A stretch of 30,856 bases of DNA from Promethearchaeota archaeon (GTDB lineage: Archaea > Asgardarchaeota > Lokiarchaeia > Sigyniarchaeales > SOKP01), in contig JBHLNT010000021.1 of the NCBI GenBank assembly GCA_048941265.1, positions 1 through 30,856 on the forward strand. The letters run 5' to 3'. The translations under genes were made by a program, and so were the position numbers. The notes beneath the pieces were generated by a model. It had not been told where the DNA came from and did not search any database. It saw only the letters and a list, made by a program, of their open reading frames with translations. Below are positions 3 to 19,889 of the stretch, in pieces; position 1 is the first letter of the stretch, and each line of letters begins with the position of its first letter.

Positions 3-2327
3 GGAACTACAACTGCTTATGTATATTCGTTTTTGACGACTTTTTTTATATCAGGAGAAGTTTTCTATGAGGCAATGAGTTTGATCTTTGCATTTATATT
101 AGTAGGAAAATACCTTGAACATAAAACAAAAGGGCAGGCATCAGAAGCTATTAAAAAATTAATTGGACTACAACCAAAAACAGCAACTCTATTAAAAGAT
201 GATGGAGAAATTGAGATTCCAATCGAGGAAATCGAAGTCGGAGATATATTAATAGTACGACCAGGTGAAAAAATCCCTGTGGATGGAAGAGTAATTAAAG
301 GCAAAACTAAGGTTGATGAATCTATGATTACGGGAGAGAGCCAATATGTAAAGAAAGAAGTAGATAGTGAGGTAATTGGAGCAACAGTTAATCAAACTGG
401 ATTGATTCAAATGATAACAGAAAAAATCGGGAAAGAGACGATGCTATTTCAGATTATTGAATTTGTAAAAGATGCTCAGTCCAGAAAAGGAGCTAAACAA
501 CGTTTAGCGGATAAAGTTAGTAATTATTTTGTACCTATAGTAGTTATTACTGCAGTAATGGCCTTTATCTATTGGTATTTTATTGCAGGTGCGGGTCTTG
601 AGATTGCATTACTAGTATTTACATCAATAGTAGTTATTTCTTGTCCATGTGCCCTTGGTTTGGCAATTCCAACAGCAATAATGGTTGGAACGGGTAAAGG
701 AGCCGAAAACGGAATATTAGTTAAAGGTGGTGATTCATTGGAATCAATAAATGGGATCAATACCATAGTTTTCGATAAAACTGGAACATTAACTGTCGGA
801 AAACCAAAAGTAACAAAAGTAATTACAGAGAAACAGATAGCAAGTACGGGTTTAGAGGAAAAAGAACTTCTATACTATGCTGGTAGTGCTGAAATGGGTT
901 CTGAACACCCTCTTGGACAAGCAATTATAGAAGAGGCAAATCAAAAAGGATTAAAACTTATTTCTCCAACTGATTTTGATGCTATTCCGGGAGAAGGAGT
1001 GTCTACAAATATTAATGGGAAGAGAGTCTTAATAGGAAATGAAAAGTTGTTTTTAGAAAATAATATAACATTTGAAAATTTCAAATCTAAATTTGATGAA
1101 CTTCAACAAAGAGGTATTACAACAATATTGATTGGAATTGATGGAACTGTTAAGGGTATAATAGGTATTTCAGATAAAATTAAAGAACAAACTCCCTATG
1201 CACTCCAAAAATTAAGAGAAAAGGGCATAGACCTCTTCATGTTAACTGGTGATAATAGACAAACAGCTCTCAGTATCGGACAGGAATTAGAATTTGATGA
1301 AAAACATATTTTAGCAGAAGTACTACCCAATGAAAAAGCTTTGACTATAAAAAATCTTCAAGATTCTGATGAAAATCGCATTGTTGCCATGGTTGGAGAT
1401 GGTATTAACGATGCTCCAGCTTTAGCTCAAGCCGATGTTGGAATCGCGGTGGGATCCGGCACAGATGTAGCTATTGAAACAGCGGATATTGTTCTTATGA
1501 GAGGTGATTTGAGAAATGTTGTATCAGCTATTAACCTCTCTAGAAAAACGTATAAAAAAATGATTACAAATCTCTTTTGGGCGTTTATTTATAATATTAT
1601 TGGAATTCCTCTAGCTGCTGGTTTACTATTTGCTTTAACGGGATATTTTTTACCTCCATACTTAGCAGCTGTCTTTATGGCAACAAGTTCAGTCTCAGTA
1701 GTTACTAATGCTCTTTTATTAAAGAGATATGAACCAAAAACTAAACAACAAGTTGAAGAAATGAAATTATTGACTGAAACAAAAGTTATAGATCCAATAT
1801 GTGGTATGGAAATAATCCCTAGCCAATCAATTGAATATACATACAAAGGTAAAAACTATTATTTCTGCAATCCATCGTGTGAAGCAGAGTTTAAACGAAA
1901 CCCTGAAAAATATAAGGACTTTAACAATATTGATCCCAAATTAATGCAAAAAGGTATGACAGAAACGAAATTAGTGACTGATCCTGTCTGTGGCATGAAA
2001 GGAAAACCAGAAGATTGGATTGAGCATGAATATAATGGCAAGAAATATTACTTTTGCAATCAATCATGTGAAGTTGAATTTAAAAAAAATCCTGAGAAAT
2101 ATATCAAAATTGATGAAAATAAAGAAATAATTGAACCAAAAAAGGAGGTTGAAGAAAAAGTGGGAAAATTAAAATGTGTGGAATGTGGTACAGAGCAGGA
2201 CTTACCAATGCATTGTGGTAAGCCTATGCATAAGGAAGGAGACCAATTAGTTTGTTGGATGGGTGCGTCCTGTGGAGCTCAACCCATCCCAGAACACCAT
2301 GGAAAACCTATGGAAGTAATAGAATAA
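3..2327 (+). CDS. copA: Cu(I)-translocating P1B-type ATPase, 5'-truncated, with two C-terminal YHS/TRASH domains and a further Cys/His domain
   Basis: Frame is open upstream of the called TTG at 33 ([10 protein letters not shown]), so the gene begins before the window. Motifs [32 protein letters not shown] and MATSS are typical of P1B-1 ATPases. Tail has DPICGM...YYFCNPSC and DPVCGM...YYFCNQSC repeats. Confidence 0.95.
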
Positions 2328-4960: not shown

Positions 4961-7336
4961 TTATTTTTTCTTAAGCTTACCGATAATTCTTGGAAGTTTT
5001 TTGATATCTGGTAATGTAATTAGTTCTTTAGTAAATAATGGATAATAATCAATTAAACGATCCAGGATGGTTCGCCATGCTTTTTGACTTTCCGTTTGAT
5101 TTGGAATTTTTCTTTTAATACTTGCTAAGATGGTGCTAGTGGTTTTCTGTTTCAAAAGTGGTATTAATTTCTTAATTACCCTAATTCTTACTTCAGAAAA
5201 ATCCTCTGGTCTAAAATTAGCTAAAGCATAACTTATTTCATCATCCGCAATAGGAAAGAATTTGATTTTCTTATCTTCGGGCTCCTCAGGATTTTTAATT
5301 AAAGTGAGCTCAAGGTCAGATTTACTTAAACTTTCAAGAATCAGAAATATCTCCCCGACAGTAATCCTAGTTGCCATAGAAATTTGATTAACAATATGCG
5401 AAATTGGATAATGATAATCGGGATAACTTTCAGTATTCTCAATCCTATATAAATACTCCTTCTTTAAAATTTCTAAAATTTGATTTTTTAAATACTCGGG
5501 GAGTTTTCTTTCTGTAAAGGCAATCTCTCTTTTTGCTTTTTCCTCTAATACTTCTTTTTCTTTTTGTTTTTTCGTATAAGTTGAGGCAAGGGAAGCAATA
5601 AACTGATCGGATGCTTTTTCCTTTTCTAAAGGAGTAGTTACTCTTAATGCTTTTCTCTCTTTAGCTGATGTAGTTTCAATCAATTTTCGAGAAAGGAAAC
5701 GTTTTGCTTTTTCCTCCGCATCTCCCTTTTTTTCAAATTGCTCAGTAATAGAATGAAATTCAACCATCTGAACTACTTTTCCCGACTTATCTCTCTTTCG
5801 GGAGATAGATACATCTACCTTTTGAGTATCCAATCTTTTAACGAGTGAATGAACTTCCCCTTTTGAAAGTTTAGTAGCTTTAATGAGCTCTCGTTCCAAA
5901 ATCTCTAAGGGATACTCATCACCTCTTCGGATATACTCACTTTTAATAAGCTTGTAAATTATATCCATAGTGTCTTCTTCCTCTTTCACTGTTTCTTTTT
6001 GTAATCGCATAAACATTGATGTTTCATGGGGTTTCAAGTAATACAATAACAGAGTGATCCCTAAGAATGTTATCATTAAAATGGAAATTACATATCTATT
6101 TGCCATTAGAATTGTTCCAAATAGCGTTAATTCCTGATTTTCAATCTGACTAGCTAAAGCAAATGCAGTTAAAGAATCAGCAAAAACACACGCAAGAAAA
6201 AACAAAATTAAACCATCTCTTTTGAAAAATAAAATTCTCCAATCAAAAGTTCCTCCTAATTTAATGATTATTCGATAAAGAAAAATCATAGAGATACCGA
6301 ATTGGATTAAATAAAGGTATGTGAGAGCTGTTCCACTAGCTCCAACTGTACTTTTAAATCCTGCGATTGTTTCAGGCCTCAAAAGTAAAAATATACTAAC
6401 CTGCAATATCTGAAAGAAAAATATAAATAAAATTATTAGAGAAAAGGTAAAATTATCATAACAGCCAGCTTTCCTTGTTTCAGCTTTTCTTCTCGTAGCA
6501 AAAAATTCTACTACAATAAATACGAGTGTTAAAACCAAACTAAAGTAAATTAGAGGCATTACTACTCGCATTCCAAAGTTATAAACTCTAACCGCATTTA
6601 CAGGATCTTTCTCTCCAAAAAAGTCTAAAGCAATAAATACAAGCAAGCTTCTATAAAATAAAGATATAATAATAAGTATGGACATAATGATAAACGGTGT
6701 AATTAAAGCAAGAAGATATCTGGAATAAGAATATTTTGAGATGAATTTTGCCTCTATTTTTGTCGAAGTTTTTCTCGATAAAGTATAGTATCTTGAGCTT
6801 AATAGAATTAACCAAATCATAGAAAAGATGAGAAAATAATTTATCCAATTAACACTTGTTCCGTAAAATGAGAATATTATATAATATACGGCAATTATTG
6901 CTCCAAATATGATCGGCTGTTTTATTTGTGTCATATTTTCAAATATAAACAGCCTGAATTTATCATAATTTAATACTATTGCTAGCGTTAAAAAGAATAA
7001 AAATATTGCATTAGCAAAAGCAAAAGGATTACCAAACATGAATATTACAAATATAAGATTTTCAGGGTCATTTATTCCTAAAATTAAAACAAATGAATAA
7101 AAAACAAATAAAAGATATAACCCCATAAATTTTTTTTCAAAAGCAAAGGATTTTGGAGGCTCTTTTCCTTTAACATAAATTTCTCTATGAATCACGTAAG
7201 CTTTTAATTTTTCATATTTTTTGTTAATCTTATCCTTAACTATTGTTGATAAAGGTTTACTAACCTTTTTCTCTTTATCTTTTGAAATTTTTAGCCTTTT
7301 TGAGGTTTCCTTTGCTTTAGAGTTCTTTTCAGACAT
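4961..7336 (-). CDS. Large polytopic membrane protein (about 10-11 TM) with cytoplasmic C-terminal region containing two winged-helix-like repeats
   Basis: Hydrophobic residues about 70-433. Soluble tail repeats IYKLIKSEY...YPLEILERELIKATKLSKGEVHSLVKRL and ILEILKKEY...YPISHIVNQISMATRITVGEIFLILESL. Confidence 0.8.
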   Translation of the reverse strand: MSEKNSKAKETSKRLKISKDKEKKVSKPLSTIVKDKINKKYEKLKAYVIHREIYVKGKEPPKSFAFEKKFMGLYLLFVFYSFVLILGINDPENLIFVIFMFGNPFAFANAIFLFFLTLAIVLNYDKFRLFIFENMTQIKQPIIFGAIIAVYYIIFSFYGTSVNWINYFLIFSMIWLILLSSRYYTLSRKTSTKIEAKFISKYSYSRYLLALITPFIIMSILIIISLFYRSLLVFIALDFFGEKDPVNAVRVYNFGMRVVMPLIYFSLVLTLVFIVVEFFATRRKAETRKAGCYDNFTFSLIILFIFFFQILQVSIFLLLRPETIAGFKSTVGASGTALTYLYLIQFGISMIFLYRIIIKLGGTFDWRILFFKRDGLILFFLACVFADSLTAFALASQIENQELTLFGTILMANRYVISILMITFLGITLLLYYLKPHETSMFMRLQKETVKEEEDTMDIIYKLIKSEYIRRGDEYPLEILERELIKATKLSKGEVHSLVKRLDTQKVDVSISRKRDKSGKVVQMVEFHSITEQFEKKGDAEEKAKRFLSRKLIETTSAKERKALRVTTPLEKEKASDQFIASLASTYTKKQKEKEVLEEKAKREIAFTERKLPEYLKNQILEILKKEYLYRIENTESYPDYHYPISHIVNQISMATRITVGEIFLILESLSKSDLELTLIKNPEEPEDKKIKFFPIADDEISYALANFRPEDFSEVRIRVIKKLIPLLKQKTTSTILASIKRKIPNQTESQKAWRTILDRLIDYYPLFTKELITLPDIKKLPRIIGKLKKK

Positions 7337-7566: not shown

Positions 7567-7848
7567 ATGATGGAAAAGGAACAAAATCTCGAAAAAGAAA
7601 AATTAGTATTATTAATAAAAAAAGCCATCGAAGTACTTTGCGAAAAAAATATTTCTGACGTTGTTATACTAAGTTCTTATAAAATTAATTCAGTTCTAAA
7701 GGAGCAATACGGTTTAGATATCAAAGCGGATAGAATTGGAAGAATTCTGTCAAATATCGCTAAAAGGAATCAATTAAAAAGATTAAGTACAAACATTCCA
7801 AAATACAAACTACATATCTCGAATATAACAAACTTAAAATTCTTTTAA
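7567..7848 (+). CDS. Small basic hypothetical protein, probable winged-helix fold
   Basis: 93 aa, helix-strand-helix-turn-helix-wing pattern (SSYKINSVLKEQYGLDIKADRIGRILSNIAK...IPKYKL). Overlaps the 3' end of the convergent MPN gene by 15 nt. Confidence 0.7.
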   Translation: MMEKEQNLEKEKLVLLIKKAIEVLCEKNISDVVILSSYKINSVLKEQYGLDIKADRIGRILSNIAKRNQLKRLSTNIPKYKLHISNITNLKFF

Positions 7849-9222
7849 GTTGTTTGCTACATTCTGAAATTTTTTAACAAAGTTGCTAATTTTCGAATAA
7901 TCCTCCTTAATTCTATTTAACTCATCGTTCAATTTTTTAATTTCTGAATCAATCATTTGTTCAAATGAAGTAAAACTTCCATTTATCCCAGTTTTTATGT
8001 TATTAGAAATAGTATTTGTATTATCTGTGATTTTTGAGATTTTCTGTGAAGAATTCTTTATTAATTCATCTATTTCCGAAGTCTTAAGAGATGCTTTTTT
8101 TAGACTATCTGATAATTCTTGAGTTTTATTTTCAATTTCAGTTGTCAAATTTTTGAAATTTTTATTCAAATTAGAATCATAATTACTTATAATCTCGCTT
8201 TTGGTATTTGATGATTGGCTAACTAATTCTTTTTGAGCCTGTTTTTGTTTGTCTATCTCTTGATAAAATTGCCCTTTAAATCCATCCACAATTTCATTTA
8301 AATTTCTATTTAACCAACCATCTAATTTGTCAAATCCAGATGTAATTTTTTCTTTCATATGGGTCAAACTATCACGAATTAATTCAGAGCCATTTAAAGT
8401 TCCTTGATTCACATCCTTTGTCCAATCTCCTACATGAGTTTCAAAAATTGTTGAGAATATTTCTGAAAATTGTGAGGAGCCTTCTTGAAAACCTGAAATT
8501 ATTGGCTTCATCACACTTTGACCCTCTCTTTTTTTTAAAATAGCCATTTCTATCTCTGATTTTGGTATTTCTTGAAGATCACTTGGTGCTGTATCAATTA
8601 ACTCATTAAACTCCTTAATTAAAATTGGTTCTCGCTTTTGGGTGTCTTCTACAAATTTTTGTATCCATTTGTAATAATCTAAGGTATTAGGAGGTTCAAG
8701 TTCATAGGTTACTTTATGGTGGTCTTTTGCCATTTGATCTAAATAATTATCTAAGCGATAAATTTCAAATCCAAGGTTTTCGTCTTTACCCATTAGAGTA
8801 TGGTCAAAAACAATACAAAAAGCATAGGGTTTCTGTTCAGTTTGAAAAAATCGATGATTTTTTAATCCAATATCTGAAAAAAATAAACCCCAACCTGGAT
8901 GTGATAAATAAAAACCAACAATATGAAGATCTTGACTAGTATAATGTTCTTCAATTTTTTTAAAAGTTATGTAATTTTCTTGTGAAAAGCCATTTGATAC
9001 TTGAGGTCCATGATTTATAGGAATAGCATTTACCAAAATTACATCAATACCGTTAGGTTGGACTTTTCCTAAACAAATTCCCATAACTTCTACACTATTT
9101 TCTAAAGCATTACTACCAAACCTTAATACATGGGTAATCATGTTTCGAAAAGCTTCTTTAGAAATATGAACTTTTCCTTGTTTAAATTTAGATTTATTTT
9201 CATCCTTTAATGGTACAGACAT
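7834..9222 (-). CDS. MPN-domain protein with degenerate JAMM motif (MPN-minus) and long coiled-coil tail
   Basis: VHISKEAFRNMITH...EVMGICLG is MPN-like. Motif reads FYLSHPGWGLFFSDIG (first His to Leu, Asp to Gly). C-terminal half is helical/heptad-rich. Confidence 0.9.
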   Translation of the reverse strand: MSVPLKDENKSKFKQGKVHISKEAFRNMITHVLRFGSNALENSVEVMGICLGKVQPNGIDVILVNAIPINHGPQVSNGFSQENYITFKKIEEHYTSQDLHIVGFYLSHPGWGLFFSDIGLKNHRFFQTEQKPYAFCIVFDHTLMGKDENLGFEIYRLDNYLDQMAKDHHKVTYELEPPNTLDYYKWIQKFVEDTQKREPILIKEFNELIDTAPSDLQEIPKSEIEMAILKKREGQSVMKPIISGFQEGSSQFSEIFSTIFETHVGDWTKDVNQGTLNGSELIRDSLTHMKEKITSGFDKLDGWLNRNLNEIVDGFKGQFYQEIDKQKQAQKELVSQSSNTKSEIISNYDSNLNKNFKNLTTEIENKTQELSDSLKKASLKTSEIDELIKNSSQKISKITDNTNTISNNIKTGINGSFTSFEQMIDSEIKKLNDELNRIKEDYSKISNFVKKFQNVANNLKEF

Positions 9223-9237
9223 CTCTTTTTAATTTCC

Positions 9238-10683
9238 TCACGTTTTTAATTTTTTCAAGTCATTTAATAGTTCTTTTTTTTCTTTTTCAAGTGATTTTAT
9301 TTTATTCTGAATAGTATCTTTTGAAGATTTGAGATCCGCTAGAAGCTCATCTAGTTCAGTAGAAAACTCTGTTCCTTGCTTACTAATCTCAATTAAGGAG
9401 GTTTTGATATTGTTAATTTTTTCTATAAAATTTCCTTTAAATTTCTTATTAGCTTTCTCAGTTTCATCAAAGATTAAACTTTCTATAGTTTTTATATTCT
9501 CTGATAAATTAGTTAAAGAATTTTGTAGGTTATTCAAATTTTCAGAGTTTTTTATATTATTTTGATCAATTTCAGATAAAATTTTTAAACCCATATCAAA
9601 ATTTTCAAACATCTTATTTAATGTATTGTGTATTTTTTCTTGAAATAAATTATCTATTAAATTATTGAATTCAAACTTTAATTGAGTAAAATTATTTTTA
9701 ATATGTTCATGATCTTTATCAAAATCATCTAGTCTATCATCAACATAAGTTAAAAGTTCATGTAGTTTATCTGTAAGAGAAAATTTAAGAGAATTTTTAA
9801 GATTATTTATACCTTGGGTCATGATATCTTTTAGAGCAATTAAATCCTTTCTCATTTGGATGTTATTATCTATAATACTCTTTATTGTGTTTTTACTCCA
9901 ACTATTTAAGAATTCAATTAAGGGTTCAATAGATAGTCGTATAAATTTCGAAACCCCATCCTCCAGAGCTGATAATATATTTGGTAAATTTAATTCGGGT
10001 TTTTTTGACAAGATCTCGTTTTGGTCAGGAAAAATAATTTCACCAAACGGGTCTTCCGTTTCATTAATTTCTAAAATCGGAGATTCTTTAGAATGTACAC
10101 TTTCTATTAGTTTCATTATTTTATAATAATATTCTACATTATCAGGAGGGTCAACTTTTGTCTCTACTTCGTGGTAATCTGACTTTGAGCCTTTCGAAGG
10201 ATCATCGAGTCTAAAAGTTCTGAATCCTAAATCTCCAGAATTTTCTAAAAACGTGTGATCAAATACAATCCCAATCGCACTAGGATTAGGTGTTTGCCAT
10301 CCCAATTGGTTGAAAATATCAGTTCCAGAGAAAAAAATTCCTAACCCTGGATGACTATGATACCATCCTACAGTCCACCAATTTTTTTCTGCAAAATTTT
10401 CATCAATTGTGGCGAAAGTTACATAATCTTGAGGTGCAAAGTTAACTTCAATTGATCCCCCATGAGAGACAGGAACTGCATCTTCAATTATAACATTTTG
10501 AATTCCTCTTTGATCTGCATCTCCTTCAAGATGACCAATTAACATGCCCATTACCTCTCGATAGTCTCTCGGATCTCTTGCTTTATTACCAAATCGCAAT
10601 ACATGAATTAGCATTTTGTAATATGCAATAGGTTTAATTCTTACGAATTTATCGAAGTCCTTATTTTTTAATCGTCTGCTCAA
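9238..10683 (-). CDS. MPN+/JAMM metallo-isopeptidase (Rpn11/CSN5-like) with long coiled-coil tail
   Basis: REVMGMLIG and GWYHSHPGLGIFFSGTD give a complete E-HxH-S-D set. TTG start. C-terminal about 260 aa helical. Confidence 0.93.
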   Translation of the reverse strand: MSRRLKNKDFDKFVRIKPIAYYKMLIHVLRFGNKARDPRDYREVMGMLIGHLEGDADQRGIQNVIIEDAVPVSHGGSIEVNFAPQDYVTFATIDENFAEKNWWTVGWYHSHPGLGIFFSGTDIFNQLGWQTPNPSAIGIVFDHTFLENSGDLGFRTFRLDDPSKGSKSDYHEVETKVDPPDNVEYYYKIMKLIESVHSKESPILEINETEDPFGEIIFPDQNEILSKKPELNLPNILSALEDGVSKFIRLSIEPLIEFLNSWSKNTIKSIIDNNIQMRKDLIALKDIMTQGINNLKNSLKFSLTDKLHELLTYVDDRLDDFDKDHEHIKNNFTQLKFEFNNLIDNLFQEKIHNTLNKMFENFDMGLKILSEIDQNNIKNSENLNNLQNSLTNLSENIKTIESLIFDETEKANKKFKGNFIEKINNIKTSLIEISKQGTEFSTELDELLADLKSSKDTIQNKIKSLEKEKKELLNDLKKLKT

Positions 10684-10891
10684 GGTTATTCACGAGGTTA
10701 TGAAATTTAGATATAGTAAATTGTTTTAAAAATTTTTTAAGGTATATTACAAATAATAGATTCTGTTTAAATAATTTTATTTGAAAAATTTAACTAGGAA
10801 ATAACTTAATAAATAGTGATCTAACCAAAATTAGAATACTATTCTAAAATTAACTACTTCAGAAATAAGAAAATTTAAAGAATAAAAAAAT

Positions 10892-11557
10892 TCATTTTTT
10901 TAGAGGTTTTCCACAATAAGGACAGAATTTGAAAGTTAAATCTTTTCCACAATACCCACAAAAAACAGAATCCTCCGCTACAATTGCAGCAGGTTCAGCT
11001 TTCGGGGTGCCTCCAGGAATTGATGGTAATTCTCTTTTTGTTTTTACTGTAGGTGTAGAGGATGAAGAAGCTGCAGCCTCCTCTTCTTGTTTAGCAGCTG
11101 CCATTCTAGCTTGGAATGCCTTTCGCATTTCATCTTCTTTATCTTGAGCTGATACCATTCCCTCTTGTTTTACCCATCCTTTTGCTTGAGGCCTCTTTAA
11201 TTGACTTTCGGGGACCTTTTCTAATTCAACTTTTGAAGTTTCAGCGACAGGAGCAACTATTTTCTTTTCATCTTTGCGCTGGACTGCTTGCTTTACTAAA
11301 GCTTGGGTGGTCTTCATAATTTGATGAGGATTAATATTAGGAATTGCAACTGTTCTAAGAACCCATCCTACAATATAGTTTTGGTTGGGAAAATCGCCAG
11401 ATACTTCTGTTTCTTTATATACATATGAATCGATAAGATCTTGTCCTTTCATAATCCTTGAAGCCCATTTACCATTTATTAGCCCTAATTGAAGTCTATA
11501 TGAGGTACCAGAAATGCCCAACTGACTCGTTAGTGGAATAAAACCTTGCTCTGTTAT
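10892..11557 (-). CDS. Hypothetical protein: N-terminal globular domain, low-complexity linker, C-terminal zinc ribbon
   Basis: FCGYCGKDLTFKFCPYCGKP at C-terminus. Called start is TTG 11521, but the frame is open to 11563 and the GGTGA RBS (11564-11568) points to ATA at 11557; the start is uncertain. Confidence 0.8.
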   Translation of the reverse strand: MTEQGFIPLTSQLGISGTSYRLQLGLINGKWASRIMKGQDLIDSYVYKETEVSGDFPNQNYIVGWVLRTVAIPNINPHQIMKTTQALVKQAVQRKDEKKIVAPVAETSKVELEKVPESQLKRPQAKGWVKQEGMVSAQDKEDEMRKAFQARMAAAKQEEEAAASSSSTPTVKTKRELPSIPGGTPKAEPAAIVAEDSVFCGYCGKDLTFKFCPYCGKPLKK

Positions 11558-11768
11558 TATTTCTCACCTTTTTTTTAAATATCTATTAATTAATCCAATT
11601 TTGTAATATTTTGAACTTAATATAAAGTTAAATTTAAAATTTAAATATTTAATGTTCTGTTTAGTAGGGAATTTTTAAAAAAAAAAGCATAAATAGAATT
11701 ACTTTTATTATCTTTAAAAATTAGTTTAAAAATTACTTATACCAAAAATGTAAGGGTGTTATAAAAAT

Positions 11769-12728
11769 ATGTCAGGGATTATAAAACTTTCAAAAAAGAC
11801 ATATTATACGATTGTTGCATCATCTGTGAGATATGCTAACACAAGAATAAAAACGGAAGATTGGCTTGAGGTTAGTGGAGTTCTTATCGGTAAAAATCAA
11901 GGAAACGATGTAATTATTTCTGCAGCTTATCCCATTATGCACCAAGAATTAGACAAAAATGCAGTAATTGATCAATATAAATGGAATGATGAAGATTATT
12001 TATCTCTAAGTATTATTGATGACGAAGCATTCTCTCGAGGAGAATTCACAGTAGGTTGGTGGCATTCGCATCCAGGATTTCGTATTATGATGAGCCATAT
12101 TGATATTCAAACAACATTATCTTATCAACAAAATAATCCCTTGGCTATAGCTTTAGTTTTTAATCCTCAAAGACTAACTAGACAAATTGAATTACCTGAT
12201 AAGAAAGGAGATCCTGTAATTCAACTGGAAAACGATCCTGGGTTCAAGATATTCAGGTTAGATGACGTTAATAAGGGTGTTCAGGCATCTTATCATGAAG
12301 TTTATTTTGAGATAGAAGGATTTAATAATGTGGTGCAGTTGATCCAACAAGCACAGAAATTCGTTATAGATGTAACAAATTTCTTACCTAAAAACAGAAT
12401 ATCTGAAAGATATGAAAGCTTTGTTAATGAACGAATAGATCAATTAAATTCTCTTATAGTGGGTACAGATGAATATTTAAAAACTCTGGTCCGTCAAGGA
12501 GAAACAAGTAGAATCGCTGAAGTATTAGAAAATCAAAAGAAAGAAATAAGAAAATATGTAGCTGAAACATTTGTTAAAATCGGAAATATCAAAGAATTCA
12601 TGGATTATTTGGAATATAAAGAAAGAGATCTGATTATACCACAAGTGAATAAAATTTTGATTAAATGGGATGAGATAATTTCTAAATTGGATGAAAAATT
12701 AGCCGAAATCTCACAAAAGTTTCAATGA
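11769..12728 (+). CDS. MPN+/JAMM metallo-isopeptidase with helical C-terminal bundle
   Basis: LEVSGVLIG, GWWHSHPGFRIMMSHID, IALVFNP. Shares the GF-x-x-FRLDD...YHEV motif with the neighbouring MPN genes. Confidence 0.93.
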   Translation: MSGIIKLSKKTYYTIVASSVRYANTRIKTEDWLEVSGVLIGKNQGNDVIISAAYPIMHQELDKNAVIDQYKWNDEDYLSLSIIDDEAFSRGEFTVGWWHSHPGFRIMMSHIDIQTTLSYQQNNPLAIALVFNPQRLTRQIELPDKKGDPVIQLENDPGFKIFRLDDVNKGVQASYHEVYFEIEGFNNVVQLIQQAQKFVIDVTNFLPKNRISERYESFVNERIDQLNSLIVGTDEYLKTLVRQGETSRIAEVLENQKKEIRKYVAETFVKIGNIKEFMDYLEYKERDLIIPQVNKILIKWDEIISKLDEKLAEISQKFQ

Positions 12729-13739: not shown

Positions 13740-15947
13740 ATGAAAAAGAGTAATTTTCCGTTTACTGCAATTTTAGGACAAGAGAAAATGAAGATGGGAT
13801 TAATTTTAAATGTAATTGATCCTCTCATTGGTGGTGTATTATTAACAGGCCATCAAGGTACGGGAAAGTCTACGGCAGTTAGATCTTTAGTCGAACTTAT
13901 GCCAAAAATAGAAGTCATTGAAGACTGTAATTTTGCTTGTGATCCTAAATCTAATATGGATGATTTATGCGCATCATGCCGTGAAAAAAAAGAAAAACAC
14001 AAGTTAAAAACTGAAATTAGGGAAATGCGTTTGGTAAATTTACCTCTTGGAGTAACTGAAGATATGGTTTGTGGTAGTTTATCCATTGATAAAGTTCTTA
14101 CAGAAGGGACTTCCGAACTTCATCCTGGGTTACTTGCGAAAGCAAATCGGGGTATTTTATATGTAGATGAGATCAATCTATTACAAGATCATATTGTTGA
14201 TGTACTTCTTGACGCTGCAGCTTCAGGTGTTAATATCATCGAAAGGGAAGGAATCTCAGTCTCGCATCCCTCTAGATTTGTGTTAGTTGGATCAATGAAT
14301 CCTGAAGAAGGAGAATTAAGACCTCAAATCGCTGATAGACTCGGTTTAGAAGTTAAAATAAGAGCTCCTCGAGATCCTAAATTAAGAGCGGAAATTACTA
14401 AAAGAGTTATCGATTTTTATGATAATCCGAAGCTGTTTATCGAAAAATTCGAAAAAGATCAAGAAAACCTTAGACAGAAAATAATCATTGCCAGAGACAT
14501 TTTAAAAAATGTTGAAATTCCAGCCAAAGTATATGAATTAGTCTCAAAAATAGTAAATGATTTAGAGATTTTTTCCCAAAGAGCAGATATTACCTTTATT
14601 AGGTGCGCTAGGGCTAATGCTGCCTTAAATAATAGAAAAATGATTACAGAAGAAGATCTTAATGTAGCTATGGATTTGGTCTTTGAGCATAGAATAGCTT
14701 CTTTACATTATGAGATGACCCCTCAAGAAATTAAAGCTAAAATTGCAGAAGTATATGGTAAAATTGAAAAGGCCTATGAGGACCCTAAGATTTATCAACC
14801 AAATAAGGATACAGAGGGTCCACTAAAACATGATGATACACCTCAAAAAGAATTCCAGAGACAATCTATAGATCCAAAAAAAGTAGATATCCCAGAAACA
14901 AAAGAACAAAAATTGCCACCCCCTAAATATCCCGATAAAAGAAAGAGAGAATCTAGTCCTGCTGGAGGTTGGAAAGTAAAAGATATTCCGGAAGAAGAGA
15001 AAAAAGAATTTAATCTTTCAGATTATGAACTGGATATTATGCCGTTTATTTATAAAATGGAAAAAAAAATGACATCAATATTAGACAATATTAGAAGGGA
15101 TCGGAAAATATCGGAATATGGAGGGCGTGGTATTGGAAGAAGGATTAAAGTTGCATCATCCCAAAAGGGTAGATATGTATCTTATAGAACTCCCATTAAT
15201 CAACCAAAAAGCATAGCTTTGGATGCAACTATAAGGAATTATTTAAAAAATGTGGTATATAATAAAACTAACGTTGAATTTCCTATCCATTTTAACAAGT
15301 ATGACTTAATGGATAAAATATATGAGTATCGTGCCCCGTTAGCTCTTTTTTTCGTTTTAGATAGCTCTGCGTCGATGTATTATGTTATCAAGCAAATGAC
15401 GGATGTAATCCAGAGTTTACAAAAGGAAGGATATCGTAAAAAAGACAAATTGGCTCTAATAATTTTTAGAGGAAAAGAAGCAATTGTACTCCAAAAACCG
15501 ACAGTTAATTTTAAATCCGCATTAGGTAAATTAAAAAATATTAAAGGAAAATCTTATACTCCTATGGCTGCTGCTTTACAAAAATGCATGAAATTAATTA
15601 AAATTGAGAAGTTGAAAAATAGAAATGTTATTCCTGTTTTGTTCATTCTCTCCGATTGCGGAGCAAACATATCTGTAAAAAATCCCGATCTAATTGCCCA
15701 GATTGAAAATGATTACTTATTAGTAGTAGAAGAATTAGAAGACTTACAAAAAAAGTTAGCAAAGCAGAAAATTTATACCGTTGTTTTAGAACCCAAAAAG
15801 AGTTATGCCACTCAAGCATTGGGAATCCATCCCTATTCCGCAGAAAAAATTAAAAAGAATTTCCGCAAATATGCTAAAGCTATGGTTTATCAATTCGACC
15901 GATACAATCCTTCTGCTTTAATTTTAGAATTGAAAAGAATCCTATAA
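13740..15947 (+). CDS. ChlI/ChlD-like (Mg/Co chelatase type) AAA+ ATPase fused to vWA domain
   Basis: FPFTAILGQEKMK, Walker A GHQGTGKST, HPGLLAKANRGILYVDEINLL, GSMNPEEGELRPQIADR, Pro/charged linker, MIDAS LDSSASM...YTP...LSD. Confidence 0.93.
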   Translation: MKKSNFPFTAILGQEKMKMGLILNVIDPLIGGVLLTGHQGTGKSTAVRSLVELMPKIEVIEDCNFACDPKSNMDDLCASCREKKEKHKLKTEIREMRLVNLPLGVTEDMVCGSLSIDKVLTEGTSELHPGLLAKANRGILYVDEINLLQDHIVDVLLDAAASGVNIIEREGISVSHPSRFVLVGSMNPEEGELRPQIADRLGLEVKIRAPRDPKLRAEITKRVIDFYDNPKLFIEKFEKDQENLRQKIIIARDILKNVEIPAKVYELVSKIVNDLEIFSQRADITFIRCARANAALNNRKMITEEDLNVAMDLVFEHRIASLHYEMTPQEIKAKIAEVYGKIEKAYEDPKIYQPNKDTEGPLKHDDTPQKEFQRQSIDPKKVDIPETKEQKLPPPKYPDKRKRESSPAGGWKVKDIPEEEKKEFNLSDYELDIMPFIYKMEKKMTSILDNIRRDRKISEYGGRGIGRRIKVASSQKGRYVSYRTPINQPKSIALDATIRNYLKNVVYNKTNVEFPIHFNKYDLMDKIYEYRAPLALFFVLDSSASMYYVIKQMTDVIQSLQKEGYRKKDKLALIIFRGKEAIVLQKPTVNFKSALGKLKNIKGKSYTPMAAALQKCMKLIKIEKLKNRNVIPVLFILSDCGANISVKNPDLIAQIENDYLLVVEELEDLQKKLAKQKIYTVVLEPKKSYATQALGIHPYSAEKIKKNFRKYAKAMVYQFDRYNPSALILELKRIL

Positions 15948-18144: not shown

Positions 18145-18888
18145 TTATTTAATAATGGTTTTTATTTTCGCAATAAACGATCCTAATTTGCTCTCATCAG
18201 CTTCAGGTACAGCAACAAATAAAATTCTATGTTCATCTAATTCATGGAGAATTATCGACCCATTCTCACCTGCAATAATAGAGTATTCTACATTTTGTTC
18301 TTCTAATAAAACATCAGATAAATTATATAAAGCCGAAATCATTGCCGAAATCACTGGTTCTGGCATAATAGATTGAATCTTAATGGGTAATCCCTCTCTA
18401 GATATTATTCCAAGCATAATAGCAGAGGGAATTGCTCTTTTTACAGCTACAAAAATCTCTTCTCTAATAAATTCCGATGTTTCTACAAAAGCCGATACTT
18501 GTAAAGCAAATCTCTTCATTTTATTAATATAATAATTCACACCTTCTAATTCCGCCAGTTCTCGCTGAAGATATGAGATCATCGTGATATTTTCTGTTAA
18601 TATAGCGAGGATCATTTTCTTCTTCCCAGTTATGATATTATAAGAGATTTCTTGCATTAATGAGCCCATTAGCGTTTTTGAGGATAAAAACAATAAACTA
18701 GAAGTTGCGGCAGCAATTTCTAACGTTGATAACTTTGTATCTTCCTTAAAATAGTTCCCGAGGAATGTACCTCCATGAGTACCAACATTTATACCTAATA
18801 TAGCAGAATCTTCGCTTATTTCTTTATTAATTAAAGCATAAATATCATTTTGTAATTGATTCATACTTTCTTCTGGTTGGGTATCCAT
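18145..18888 (-). CDS. Tandem roadblock/LC7 (profilin-like) domain protein
   Basis: Second half LGIISREGLPI...VISAMISAL...IIAGENGSIILHEL...KLG is a classic roadblock pattern. First half has the same order of elements (GINVGTHGG...IAAATSSL...IITGKKKMIL). Confidence 0.85.
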   Translation of the reverse strand: MDTQPEESMNQLQNDIYALINKEISEDSAILGINVGTHGGTFLGNYFKEDTKLSTLEIAAATSSLLFLSSKTLMGSLMQEISYNIITGKKKMILAILTENITMISYLQRELAELEGVNYYINKMKRFALQVSAFVETSEFIREEIFVAVKRAIPSAIMLGIISREGLPIKIQSIMPEPVISAMISALYNLSDVLLEEQNVEYSIIAGENGSIILHELDEHRILFVAVPEADESKLGSFIAKIKTIIK

Positions 18889-19067: not shown

Positions 19068-19889
19068 ATGGATGAACAATATAGAAAACAACTTGAGACT
19101 AAAGAAAGCTTAATAAAAACTCTCCAGGATTCCATCAAACTAAAGGATAATCAATTAGAGACTATTCAAGATTCTTTAAAATTAAAGGATGATCAAATTA
19201 AGATTCTCGAGAATTCTTTAAATACTAAAGATGCTAAAATTCAGACTTTAGAAAAAACAATTAAGCTAAAAGAAGATCAGATGAAATCTATGGCATCCAC
19301 ATCCACTGATGAGAAAATATTGGCTGAAAAAGAAAAAGAAATCAAAGATCTTAGAAAAGAAATTGAAATTTTAAATGATGAGCTAATAAAAGCAGATGAG
19401 GATTTAGAAAAATTAGAAATTGAAAATGAAAAATTACGAAAAGCCGGTATAAATTCATTTGGACCCAAAATTTTAGATTTTACTAACCAAGAGATTACAA
19501 GATCGGAAATACTTGAAGAAATGCGTAAAATAATACAAAAATCCATAAGTAGTGTTACTATTGCGGTTCCTAAGATAGATGACTTACAAGACTTGTATCT
19601 CTATGAAGTAAGGTCTTCAGTAAATATAAAAATTTCATGTGGGATCAATCCCGGAATTGAAGAGCATGTAGAATTATTAGATGAGTACGAATCTCTTGAT
19701 AATATCTCTCTACGGCACTTTGAGGGAGCAGATCGATATGTTTTAAATAGAGATGGGGAAGAACTCTTGATGGCTGTTATAGGGGAAAATGAAAATAATC
19801 ATTTAGTGTTTAAGACAAAGGATCCAGCTCATATTAGGCTTCTCAATCCTTTGGTTATGGATTCCTGGCTTAGATCAAGAAAAATCTAA
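19068..19889 (+). CDS. Coiled-coil protein with C-terminal PLD-like/TrmB-effector-like alpha/beta domain
   Basis: N-terminal heptad repeats. C-terminal IIQKSISSVTIAVP...LNRDGEELLMAV...KTKDPAHIRLL...W resembles the PLD-like fold without HKD. Confidence 0.7.
   Translation: MDEQYRKQLETKESLIKTLQDSIKLKDNQLETIQDSLKLKDDQIKILENSLNTKDAKIQTLEKTIKLKEDQMKSMASTSTDEKILAEKEKEIKDLRKEIEILNDELIKADEDLEKLEIENEKLRKAGINSFGPKILDFTNQEITRSEILEEMRKIIQKSISSVTIAVPKIDDLQDLYLYEVRSSVNIKISCGINPGIEEHVELLDEYESLDNISLRHFEGADRYVLNRDGEELLMAVIGENENNHLVFKTKDPAHIRLLNPLVMDSWLRSRKI
19089..19290 (+). repeat. Degenerate in-frame 42-bp (14-aa) tandem repeat, about 4.5-5 copies
   Basis: LETKESLIKTLQDS / IKLKDNQLETIQDS / LKLKDDQIKILENS / LNTKDAKIQTLEKT / IKLKEDQMKSM. 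Confidence 0.75.

Follow-up and report, generated by a model that had tools for sequence, protein, structure and literature searches.

Three MPN genes at one locus

In eukaryotes, the proteasome lid, the COP9 signalosome, eIF3, and the BRCC36 complexes are characterised by pairs of MPN proteins, one active (MPN+) and one inactive (MPN-). Here we describe a stretch of 30,856 nucleotides from a Promethearchaeota archaeon (assembly GCA_048941265.1, contig JBHLNT010000021.1), referred to as the window, in which three paralogous MPN genes, A, B, and C, lie within 5 kb (Table 1). A is located downstream of B, and 15 nt separate the stop codon of B from the start codon of A. This B-A tandem and the question of whether its products form a heteromeric JAMM enzyme are the main subject of the analysis.

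The genome that contains the window (5.0 Mb, 361 contigs, 91% complete) has seven matches to the JAB family PF01398. A, B, and C match this family with 52.8, 46.0, and 46.6 bits, respectively, against a Pfam cut-off of 22.5, which places all three in the superfamily. Matches to Prok-JAB (PF14464) merely reach the cut-off of that family (B, 25.0 bits; C, 27.9 bits). The complete MPN+ motif, E...H-x-H-x(7)-S-x(2)-D, is present in B and C and absent from A of this window. The JAMM residues of B are E43...H109-S-H111-P...S119..D122, and the intact motif of C reads HSHPGFRIMMSHID. In A, the motif is LSHPGWGLFFSDIG. The first histidine is replaced by Leu106 and the aspartate by Gly119, so that two of the three zinc ligands are gone, and Glu45, His108, and Ser116 are retained. 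A is thus MPN- in this genome. An initial annotation, made from the window's letters, had proposed three MPN open reading frames (ORFs), two of them with the full JAMM set and the third, 15 nt downstream of one of these, lacking two zinc ligands. The ORF listing and the PF01398 scores confirm the former proposal, and the alignment the latter.

The same annotation described a tail motif common to the three proteins, GF-x-x-[FY]RLD...[YH]H[EK]V. The motif is found in A, B, and C alike, but its residues make up the final strands of the MPN core (B 154-159 and 170-173 in the AlphaFold2 model) and lie outside the tail. The alignment of CSN5 with B spans GF..FR, and two other MPN paralogues of the genome carry variants of the motif. 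In the AlphaFold2 model of B, built from 61 sequences (mean predicted local distance difference test score, pLDDT, 74.2), the MPN domain covers about residues 14-197 and is followed by a linker (198-231) and two long helices (233-316 and 321-480). The tails are about 250 residues long. The linker is modelled with low confidence, yet it contains the near-invariant residues P202, I203, L204, E205, N207, E208, F213, and G214. The proposed helical extensions are therefore modelled for B. For A, the helical tail is suggested by the complex model described below and by coiled-coil-type Pfam noise matches; for C, a tail of approximately 125 residues is suggested by the sequence and by an Atlas entry that records a confident helical model.

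Two short segments differ among the paralogues. Directly after the MPN domain of B, the nearly invariant stretch PILEINE..D.FG (window 10044-10082, B ~202-214) is modelled as disordered. Its counterpart in A (A ~199-220) reads PILIKE.NE ... DLQEIP. This post-MPN linker motif may be a docking peptide or a piece of the interface. C has an insertion of approximately 15 residues ahead of its GFKIFRL strand. The inserted segment, ELPDKKGDP..L.NDP (window 12183-12233, C ~139-155), is conserved and absent from A and B, and its site is what we take to be the place of Ins-2 in eukaryotic JAMMs.

Table 1. Genes of the conserved block. Sources are the window and the loci of 20 relatives.
Gene	Position	Strand	Description
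A	7834-9222	-	462-residue ORF; paralogue of B with the same architecture; predicted partner of B
B	9238-10683	-	481-residue ORF; putative catalytic MPN+ subunit
C	11769-12728	+	319-residue ORF; third MPN+ paralogue, divergently transcribed
F1	7567..7848	+	93 residues; convergent with A, 3' ends overlapping by 15 nt; conserved, beside A in 16/21 sources
F2	10892..11521	-	209 residues; upstream of B on the strand of B; between C and B, 15/21 sources
F3	4961..7336	-	791-residue polytopic membrane protein with a soluble C-terminal half; conserved, 13/21 sources
F4	13740..15947	+	ChlI/ChlD-type AAA+ protein with a vWA domain ('putative cobaltochelatase' type); downstream of and co-directional with C; 11/21 sources

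Conservation of the tandem and of the catalytic site

The loci of 20 relatives were fetched and all ORFs of these and the window were clustered, giving 21 sources, in which many misses fall at contig ends. B followed by A on a single strand is found in all 20 relatives' loci, with a gap of -26 to +15 nt in 19 of them. In one locus of the same genus (L030:5820-11865), approximately 6 kb with five other ORFs lie between A and B. C was found in 11 of the 20 loci. In each of these, B and C are divergent and lie about 1 kb apart, or 2.7 kb in L040, with the F2 gene between them. The initial annotation had made its proposal depend on conservation of the cluster in relatives, and the cluster is conserved. 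The close homologues come from metagenome-assembled genomes of the Promethearchaeota (Asgard) type, and their public labels are 'hypothetical', 'Mov34/MPN/PAD-1 family', or 'proteasome lid subunit RPN8/RPN11'.

The catalytic residues have evolved differently in the three proteins, as tallied over the best 120 homologues of each. Among the B-type proteins, the set E, H, S, H, S, D is kept in 116; the other four are truncated at the N-terminus and lack only the column of the N-terminal glutamate. All 120 C-type proteins have the glutamate and the three zinc ligands, and 10 of them have threonine at one or other of the two serine positions (110 EHSHSD, 6 EHTHSD, and 4 EHSHTD). In the A-type proteins, the set is whole in 54, degenerate in 64, and gapped in 2. 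More than 20 patterns occur among the 64 degenerate proteins. The first histidine is replaced by S, N, L, I, Y, T, Q, or A, the aspartate by A, G, E, T, S, or I, and the second histidine by R or N.

Two trees bear on these losses. When the A-type proteins with 400 residues or more are placed on a FastTree, at least six changes between intact and degenerate states are needed. In a quick IQ-TREE analysis of 59 MPN domains, the A clade (Shimodaira-Hasegawa-like approximate likelihood ratio test, SH-aLRT, 96), the C clade (90), and the grouping of A with B (94) are recovered, and the earliest A branches (loci L044-L046, L037, L031, and L034) carry intact JAMM motifs. Since the early-branching copies of A are intact, the ancestral pair would have been MPN+/MPN+. 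Judged from the sequences, the MPN- state of A is a recurrent derived state, also in the window's own genus. The initial annotation had let the MPN- state define the partner and had itself named intact motifs in orthologues of the degenerate gene as evidence to the contrary; with 54 of 120 A-type proteins intact, the partner is not catalytically dead throughout the family, and that part of the proposal does not hold.

The mean pairwise identity of the MPN domain is 0.40 for A and 0.61 for B, and it is lower for A in 170 of 171 genome pairs. By this measure, the MPN domain of A is under relaxed constraint. A is nevertheless a full-length ORF in all 21 sources, and the 120 homologues listed for it have 416-478 residues (one has 360) at identities down to 32%.

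The predicted B-A complex and its possible function

A complex of B and A is predicted with a score of 0.66, against 0.00 for the best of three controls. The mark used for this score is reached by 58 of 80 solved complexes and by 2 of 110 mismatched pairs. Three runs agreed in at least 79% of contacts, and the pLDDT of the partner, A, was at least 68. Confident contacts between the MPN domains join B 18-36 and 177-202 with A 25-40 and 175-201, which in each chain correspond to helix α1 and the final helix of the MPN domain. The tails touch through B 270-344 and 383-451 and A 278-351 and 388-455, with a spacing of 3-4 residues, and the contact residues are compatible with parallel and antiparallel packing alike. 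Interface positions in the tails are hydrophobic at a fraction of 0.55-0.58, compared with 0.20-0.28 at other tail positions. The MPN interface positions of A are better conserved than the rest of the domain (0.80 vs 0.68), and the α1 helix and the last MPN helix are the best-conserved parts of A. The prediction thus supports binding between B and A, as a candidate hetero-association of the kind anticipated by the initial annotation.

We consider it somewhat probable that B-A is a lineage-specific heteromeric JAMM enzyme, convergent with Rpn11/Rpn8, CSN5/CSN6, and BRCC36/Abraxas. B and A would be translated from one transcript. The two proteins are predicted to form a heterodimer in which helix α1 and the final MPN helix provide the packing surface of the MPN domains, while the tails of approximately 250 residues zip together. 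B would be the protease, as it has the only working zinc site of the pair in this genome. A, judged by its conservation, may be retained as a structural or allosteric partner, acting as a scaffold or an activator. As family membership suggests, the most likely reaction would be hydrolysis of the isopeptide or peptide bond that follows a ubiquitin-like protein, for which the genome has ubiquitin, E1, and E2 genes outside the window. C, always catalytic and with a shorter tail of its own, may work by itself, form a homodimer, or take the place of a partner in the pair. The pair would have arisen in one Asgard (Promethearchaeota-type) order as two active enzymes, and the site of the downstream copy would then have been lost repeatedly in sublineages. 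Of the complex originally proposed, the conserved cluster and the predicted B-A association are thus kept, and the inactive partner as its defining trait is given up.

Several points weigh against this interpretation. About half of the orthologous pairs have an intact JAMM motif in both subunits, and the system can therefore exist with no inactive partner. The tandem is broken in L030, the sole such case among the 20 loci. The pass in the complex prediction may be driven by the likeness of B and A to solved MPN heterodimers (Rpn8-Rpn11, CSN5-CSN6, and BRCC36-KIAA0157); the method passes close cousins of true partners too, and the prediction covers the B-A pair alone. The six catalytic columns were kept in the FastTree alignment, and the IQ-TREE analysis, based on about 219 columns, left out eukaryotic sequences and has long branches in the outgroup. 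Finally, no ubiquitin, E1, or E2 gene lies in or beside the block in any of the 21 sources. Because of this lack of linkage, the assignment of the substrate relies solely on the usual behaviour of the family.

The first alternative is that A, B, and C are independent paralogous JAMM enzymes, working as homodimers or monomers, with A a redundant, drifting duplicate of B and the tandem a relic of the duplication. The faster evolution of A and the many ways in which its catalytic residues were lost fit this explanation, as does the tolerance of the complex test for close cousins. In addition, CsRpn11, the Caldiarchaeum Rpn11 homologue, is reported to crystallise as a homodimer via helices H1 and H4 (PMC6043591), and BRCC36 is reported to form an inactive homodimer (PMC4579573), so that MPN homodimers formed through this surface do exist. 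For a decaying duplicate, however, one would expect loss or truncation in certain lineages, whereas A is full length in the 21 sources and among the listed homologues despite its low identities. Its interface helices are its best-conserved parts, and B and A are coupled in 19 of 20 loci, in several families. We regard this first alternative as unlikely.

The second alternative accepts a heteromer and gives it a job other than the removal of ubiquitin-like proteins, either with another peptidase specificity or as a mainly structural coiled-coil assembly whose MPN heads serve for binding, perhaps in connection with the membrane protein F3 or the zinc-ribbon protein F2. The genome outside the window bears on this point. 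A Pfam scan found no ubiquitin, E1, E2, or PCI gene in the window, as had been noted originally, and such genes are present elsewhere in the genome. Those that could make substrates are a ubiquitin-E1-E2-JAMM operon on contig C327 and further ubiquitin-like, E1, and E2 genes. The JAMM genes on contigs C327, C241, and C137 adjoin E1/E2 genes, and the block has no such linkage in 21 sources. The conserved neighbours of B-A are a membrane protein, a zinc-ribbon protein, and a small protein without a family, and tails of approximately 250 residues are very long for a simple dimerisation device. On the other hand, the JAMM residues are invariant in B (116/120) and C (120/120), which argues for catalysis, and the characterised eukaryote-like JAB enzymes cleave after ubiquitin or ubiquitin-like proteins (see also PMC6043591). 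We give this second alternative a small chance.

The ubiquitin-type genes of the genome were also inspected in their own right. On contig C327 (G000:C327:951-3717; loci L001, L049, L054, and L057), a canonical Asgard-type ubiquitin operon encodes a ubiquitin-like protein, E1, E2, and a 275-residue Rpn11-like JAMM. A second cluster (G000:C241:11472-13448) encodes an E2-like protein, an E1-like protein, and a 162-residue JAMM. On contig C137 (L063, G000:C137:1-9000), a co-directional gene row runs from ORF 8246-8914(-) to ORF 888-2027(-). Its first part encodes an SPFH/Band-7 protein, a 360-residue protein without an assignment, an E1-like ThiF protein (179 bits), and a 413-residue MPN protein (JAB, 23.8 bits). 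The rest encodes a 270-residue protein with a sub-threshold match to UFC1, the E2 of UFM1, two PCI proteins (33.5 and 29.2 bits; cut-off 22), and a 379-residue protein, likewise unassigned. With PCI and E1 genes beside it, the C137 MPN gene makes a stronger candidate than the window's triad for a lid/CSN-like or UFM1-like system. Contig C92 (L062:1558-3927 (+), G000:C92) encodes a 789-residue protein with N-terminal zinc ribbons, matches to DDRGK (59.8 bits) and E3_UFM1_ligase (59.2 bits), three PCI-type winged helices (95.8 bits in total), and a sub-threshold Vps28 C-terminus. In its domain matches, this protein resembles a UFL1/DDRGK1-like fusion. Two further MPN+ paralogues have C-terminal extensions. 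The first, on contig C334 (L006:1387-2937 (+)), has 517 residues and a TPR-like tail with sub-threshold matches to Rgg_C and SNAP, and its type recurs in many relatives as frames of 513-570 residues. The second, on contig C258 (L007:811-2052 (-)), has 414 residues and a helical tail.

The neighbours of the tandem are conserved to different degrees. F1 has no Pfam or NCBIfam match, F3 has no Pfam match at E <= 0.01 and no NCBIfam match, and either may or may not be part of the system. The winged-helix-like repeats of F3 were considered as PCI-like and dropped, as they have no Pfam match and are dissimilar to the 789-residue PCI/UFL1-like protein of contig C92. F2 consists of a conserved N-terminal domain of approximately 90 residues, a low-complexity linker, and a C-terminal double zinc ribbon, whose Pfam matches are near the cut-off. 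Its AlphaFold2 model, from 14 sequences, has a pLDDT of 62.6, and Foldseek found nothing for it in the PDB at E <= 0.001. In the Atlas, a single row, an archaeal zinc-ribbon cluster (0.91), lies above the display score. The orthologues of F2 begin approximately 15 residues before its listed TTG start, with a conserved M.EKGF.PLTSQLGI stretch, and the listed start is probably too far downstream. F2 or F1 as a ubiquitin-like substrate is unsupported, since neither matches any family in Pfam or NCBIfam. F4 matches Mg_chelatase, AAA_lid_2, and VWA_2 in Pfam and TIGR02442 with 581 bits, under the 779-bit cut-off of that model. A role of F4 as an analogue of the proteasome base or Rpn10 was rejected, as cobaltochelatase and BchI/BchD models match along its length, and it is probably a metabolic neighbour.

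Other observations concern the block and the rest of the window. In L031 (1558-2163 (+) and its neighbour) and L045 (4099-4839 (+) and its neighbour), two extra small MPN-like genes of approximately 200-246 residues lie between F2 and B, giving four MPN genes in a row. One of these proteins from each locus was aligned, and both lack the JAMM residues (YRSS-NKG... and YKVIEMS...). Further along the window, an ORF of 247 residues with a sub-threshold Roadblock/LC7 match (18145-18888 (-)) adjoins a 273-residue coiled-coil protein (19068-19889 (+)). A scan for sigma-70 promoters and terminators, which is ill-suited to archaea, gave sites no more numerous than in shuffled sequences.

A more ambitious version of the preferred reading is that B-A is an obligate, independently built two-headed deubiquitinase, with a four-helix MPN interface and a long coiled-coil stalk, to which C, F2, and F3 might contribute as further subunits or docking sites. 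This version is tentative and, in our view, rather doubtful.

Relation to the eukaryotic MPN pairs

By sequence, and for B also by fold, the three proteins are close to the eukaryotic JAMM proteins. Foldseek searches with the B model returned Rpn11, CSN5, CsRpn11, and BRCC36 as top matches (E about 1e-10). The best solved sequence relatives of all three proteins are CSN5, followed by CsRpn11 and Rpn11, and then by BRCC36 and AMSH. B matches CSN5 at 4e-11, Rpn11 at 3e-8, and BRCC36 at E 1e-6 to 1e-3. BRCC36 is thus weaker than CSN5 and Rpn11 for B, and likewise for A and C, and the BRCC36 group is not their closest relation. The three proteins do not belong to the haloarchaeal desampylases (NF041370) either; B scores 19 bits against a cut-off of 130, and A and C have no match to this model.

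The tails, on the other hand, set the family apart. In 400 genomes of the phylum, the post-MPN module (B residues 175-330) occurs in the window's family f1 (123 of 134 genomes), in f3 (1 of 1), and in f2 (4 of 14), which are families of one Asgard order, and in none of the genomes of all other families. A 19-sequence profile of this module, searched against 1.84 billion representative proteins, gave 84 matches at E <= 0.001 and 39 at E <= 1e-10. Nearly all of the matched proteins have 440-560 residues and align from about residue 170 onwards; there are also weak matches to a few long coiled-coil proteins. At the sensitivity of HMMER, the module was not found in eukaryotes in this search. The hallmarks of the Rpn11/Rpn8 and CSN5/CSN6 groups, namely the C-terminal helices of the family and PCI partners, were not found in the block, and the window proteins have no Pfam match to RPN11_C, CSN5_C, or MitMem_reg at E <= 0.01. 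For the tail of C, an Atlas search pointed to Rpn11_C and CSN5_C clusters (0.82 and 0.78). This lead is below the bar of 0.9 and was confirmed neither by Pfam nor by a 57-sequence profile of C, which matches CSN5 and Rpn11 among the PDB sequences solely over the MPN core (positions 29-136).

A and B are, by the tree, sister paralogues, and the JAMM of the ubiquitin operon on C327 is nearer to Rpn11 (62-63 bits to CsRpn11 and Rpn11) than B is (36-42 bits to these and 45 to CSN5); for Rpn11 itself, the scores are 62 and 36 bits, respectively. Together with the order-restricted tail, these findings point to a lineage-specific duplication and favour convergence. Shared descent with the eukaryotic MPN+/MPN- design is unlikely, and of the two origins left open by the initial annotation, related or convergent, the latter is the better reading. 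The idea that B-A is homologous to the eukaryotic pair and a surviving relative of its ancestor, which the eukaryote-like JAB domains with their CSN5 and Rpn11 matches, the Asgard host, and the Atlas lead for the C tail would suit, is very improbable in the face of basal A copies that are catalytic, the mutual closeness of A and B, the closer JAMM of the ubiquitin operon, and a tail module confined to one order.

Among the known systems, BRCC36-KIAA0157/Abraxas, the core of BRISC and BRCA1-A, offers a close parallel to B-A, with an MPN+ enzyme and a paralogous partner. As described for BRCC36-KIAA0157 (PMC4579573), α1 is at the centre of the association of the MPN domains, and the coiled-coil bundle between the chains is built from helices α4 and α5. 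The predicted contacts of B and A fall on the same parts of the chains, namely α1, the final MPN helix, and the tails, and Foldseek aligns approximately 300 columns of B to BRCC36 chains. Unlike the two short helices of the BRCC36 system, however, the tails of B and A have approximately 250 residues. The partner A is catalytic in part of its orthologues, the origin of B-A is lineage-specific, and no BRCC45- or MERIT40-type genes were seen here.

Rpn11-Rpn8 and CSN5-CSN6 share with B-A the eukaryote-type JAB domain and, in this genome, the principle of an active and an inactive MPN protein. They differ in that the B-A block has no PCI partners and in that the B/A tail is unrelated and known from one order only. 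CsRpn11 and the JAMMs of the Asgard ubiquitin operons are likewise archaeal and eukaryote-like in their JAMM domains, but they are single short proteins in ubiquitin operons, whereas A, B, and C are long-tailed, mutually paralogous, and unlinked to ubiquitin genes. The minimal prokaryotic JAMMs (Prok-JAB and the haloarchaeal desampylase HvJAMM1) share the JAMM motif and are single small domains. In a passage of the 2018 study of the archaeal Rpn11 homologue (PMC6043591), an organisation of the Rpn8-Rpn11 type is stated as not known in archaea. The literature consulted, apart from supplements whose orthologous-group tables may list the family, describes no Asgard MPN+/MPN- coiled-coil pair.

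The B-A genes represent an Asgard family with a co-arranged MPN pair whose predicted interface is that of the eukaryotic pairs and in which the site of the partner has been repeatedly lost in some members and kept in others. As B-A seems unlike an ancestor of the eukaryotic pairs, it carries limited weight for eukaryogenesis. What is of note is the convergent and recurrent birth of a pseudo-enzyme partner, within the limits of a narrow distribution. If the heterodimer is real, the design evolves readily by duplication, and matched natural pairs, active/active and active/dead, would lend themselves to testing what a pseudo-deubiquitinase contributes. Should the two-headed deubiquitinase prove true, the family would provide a natural time series for the origin of pseudo-enzyme partners such as Rpn8, CSN6, and Abraxas.

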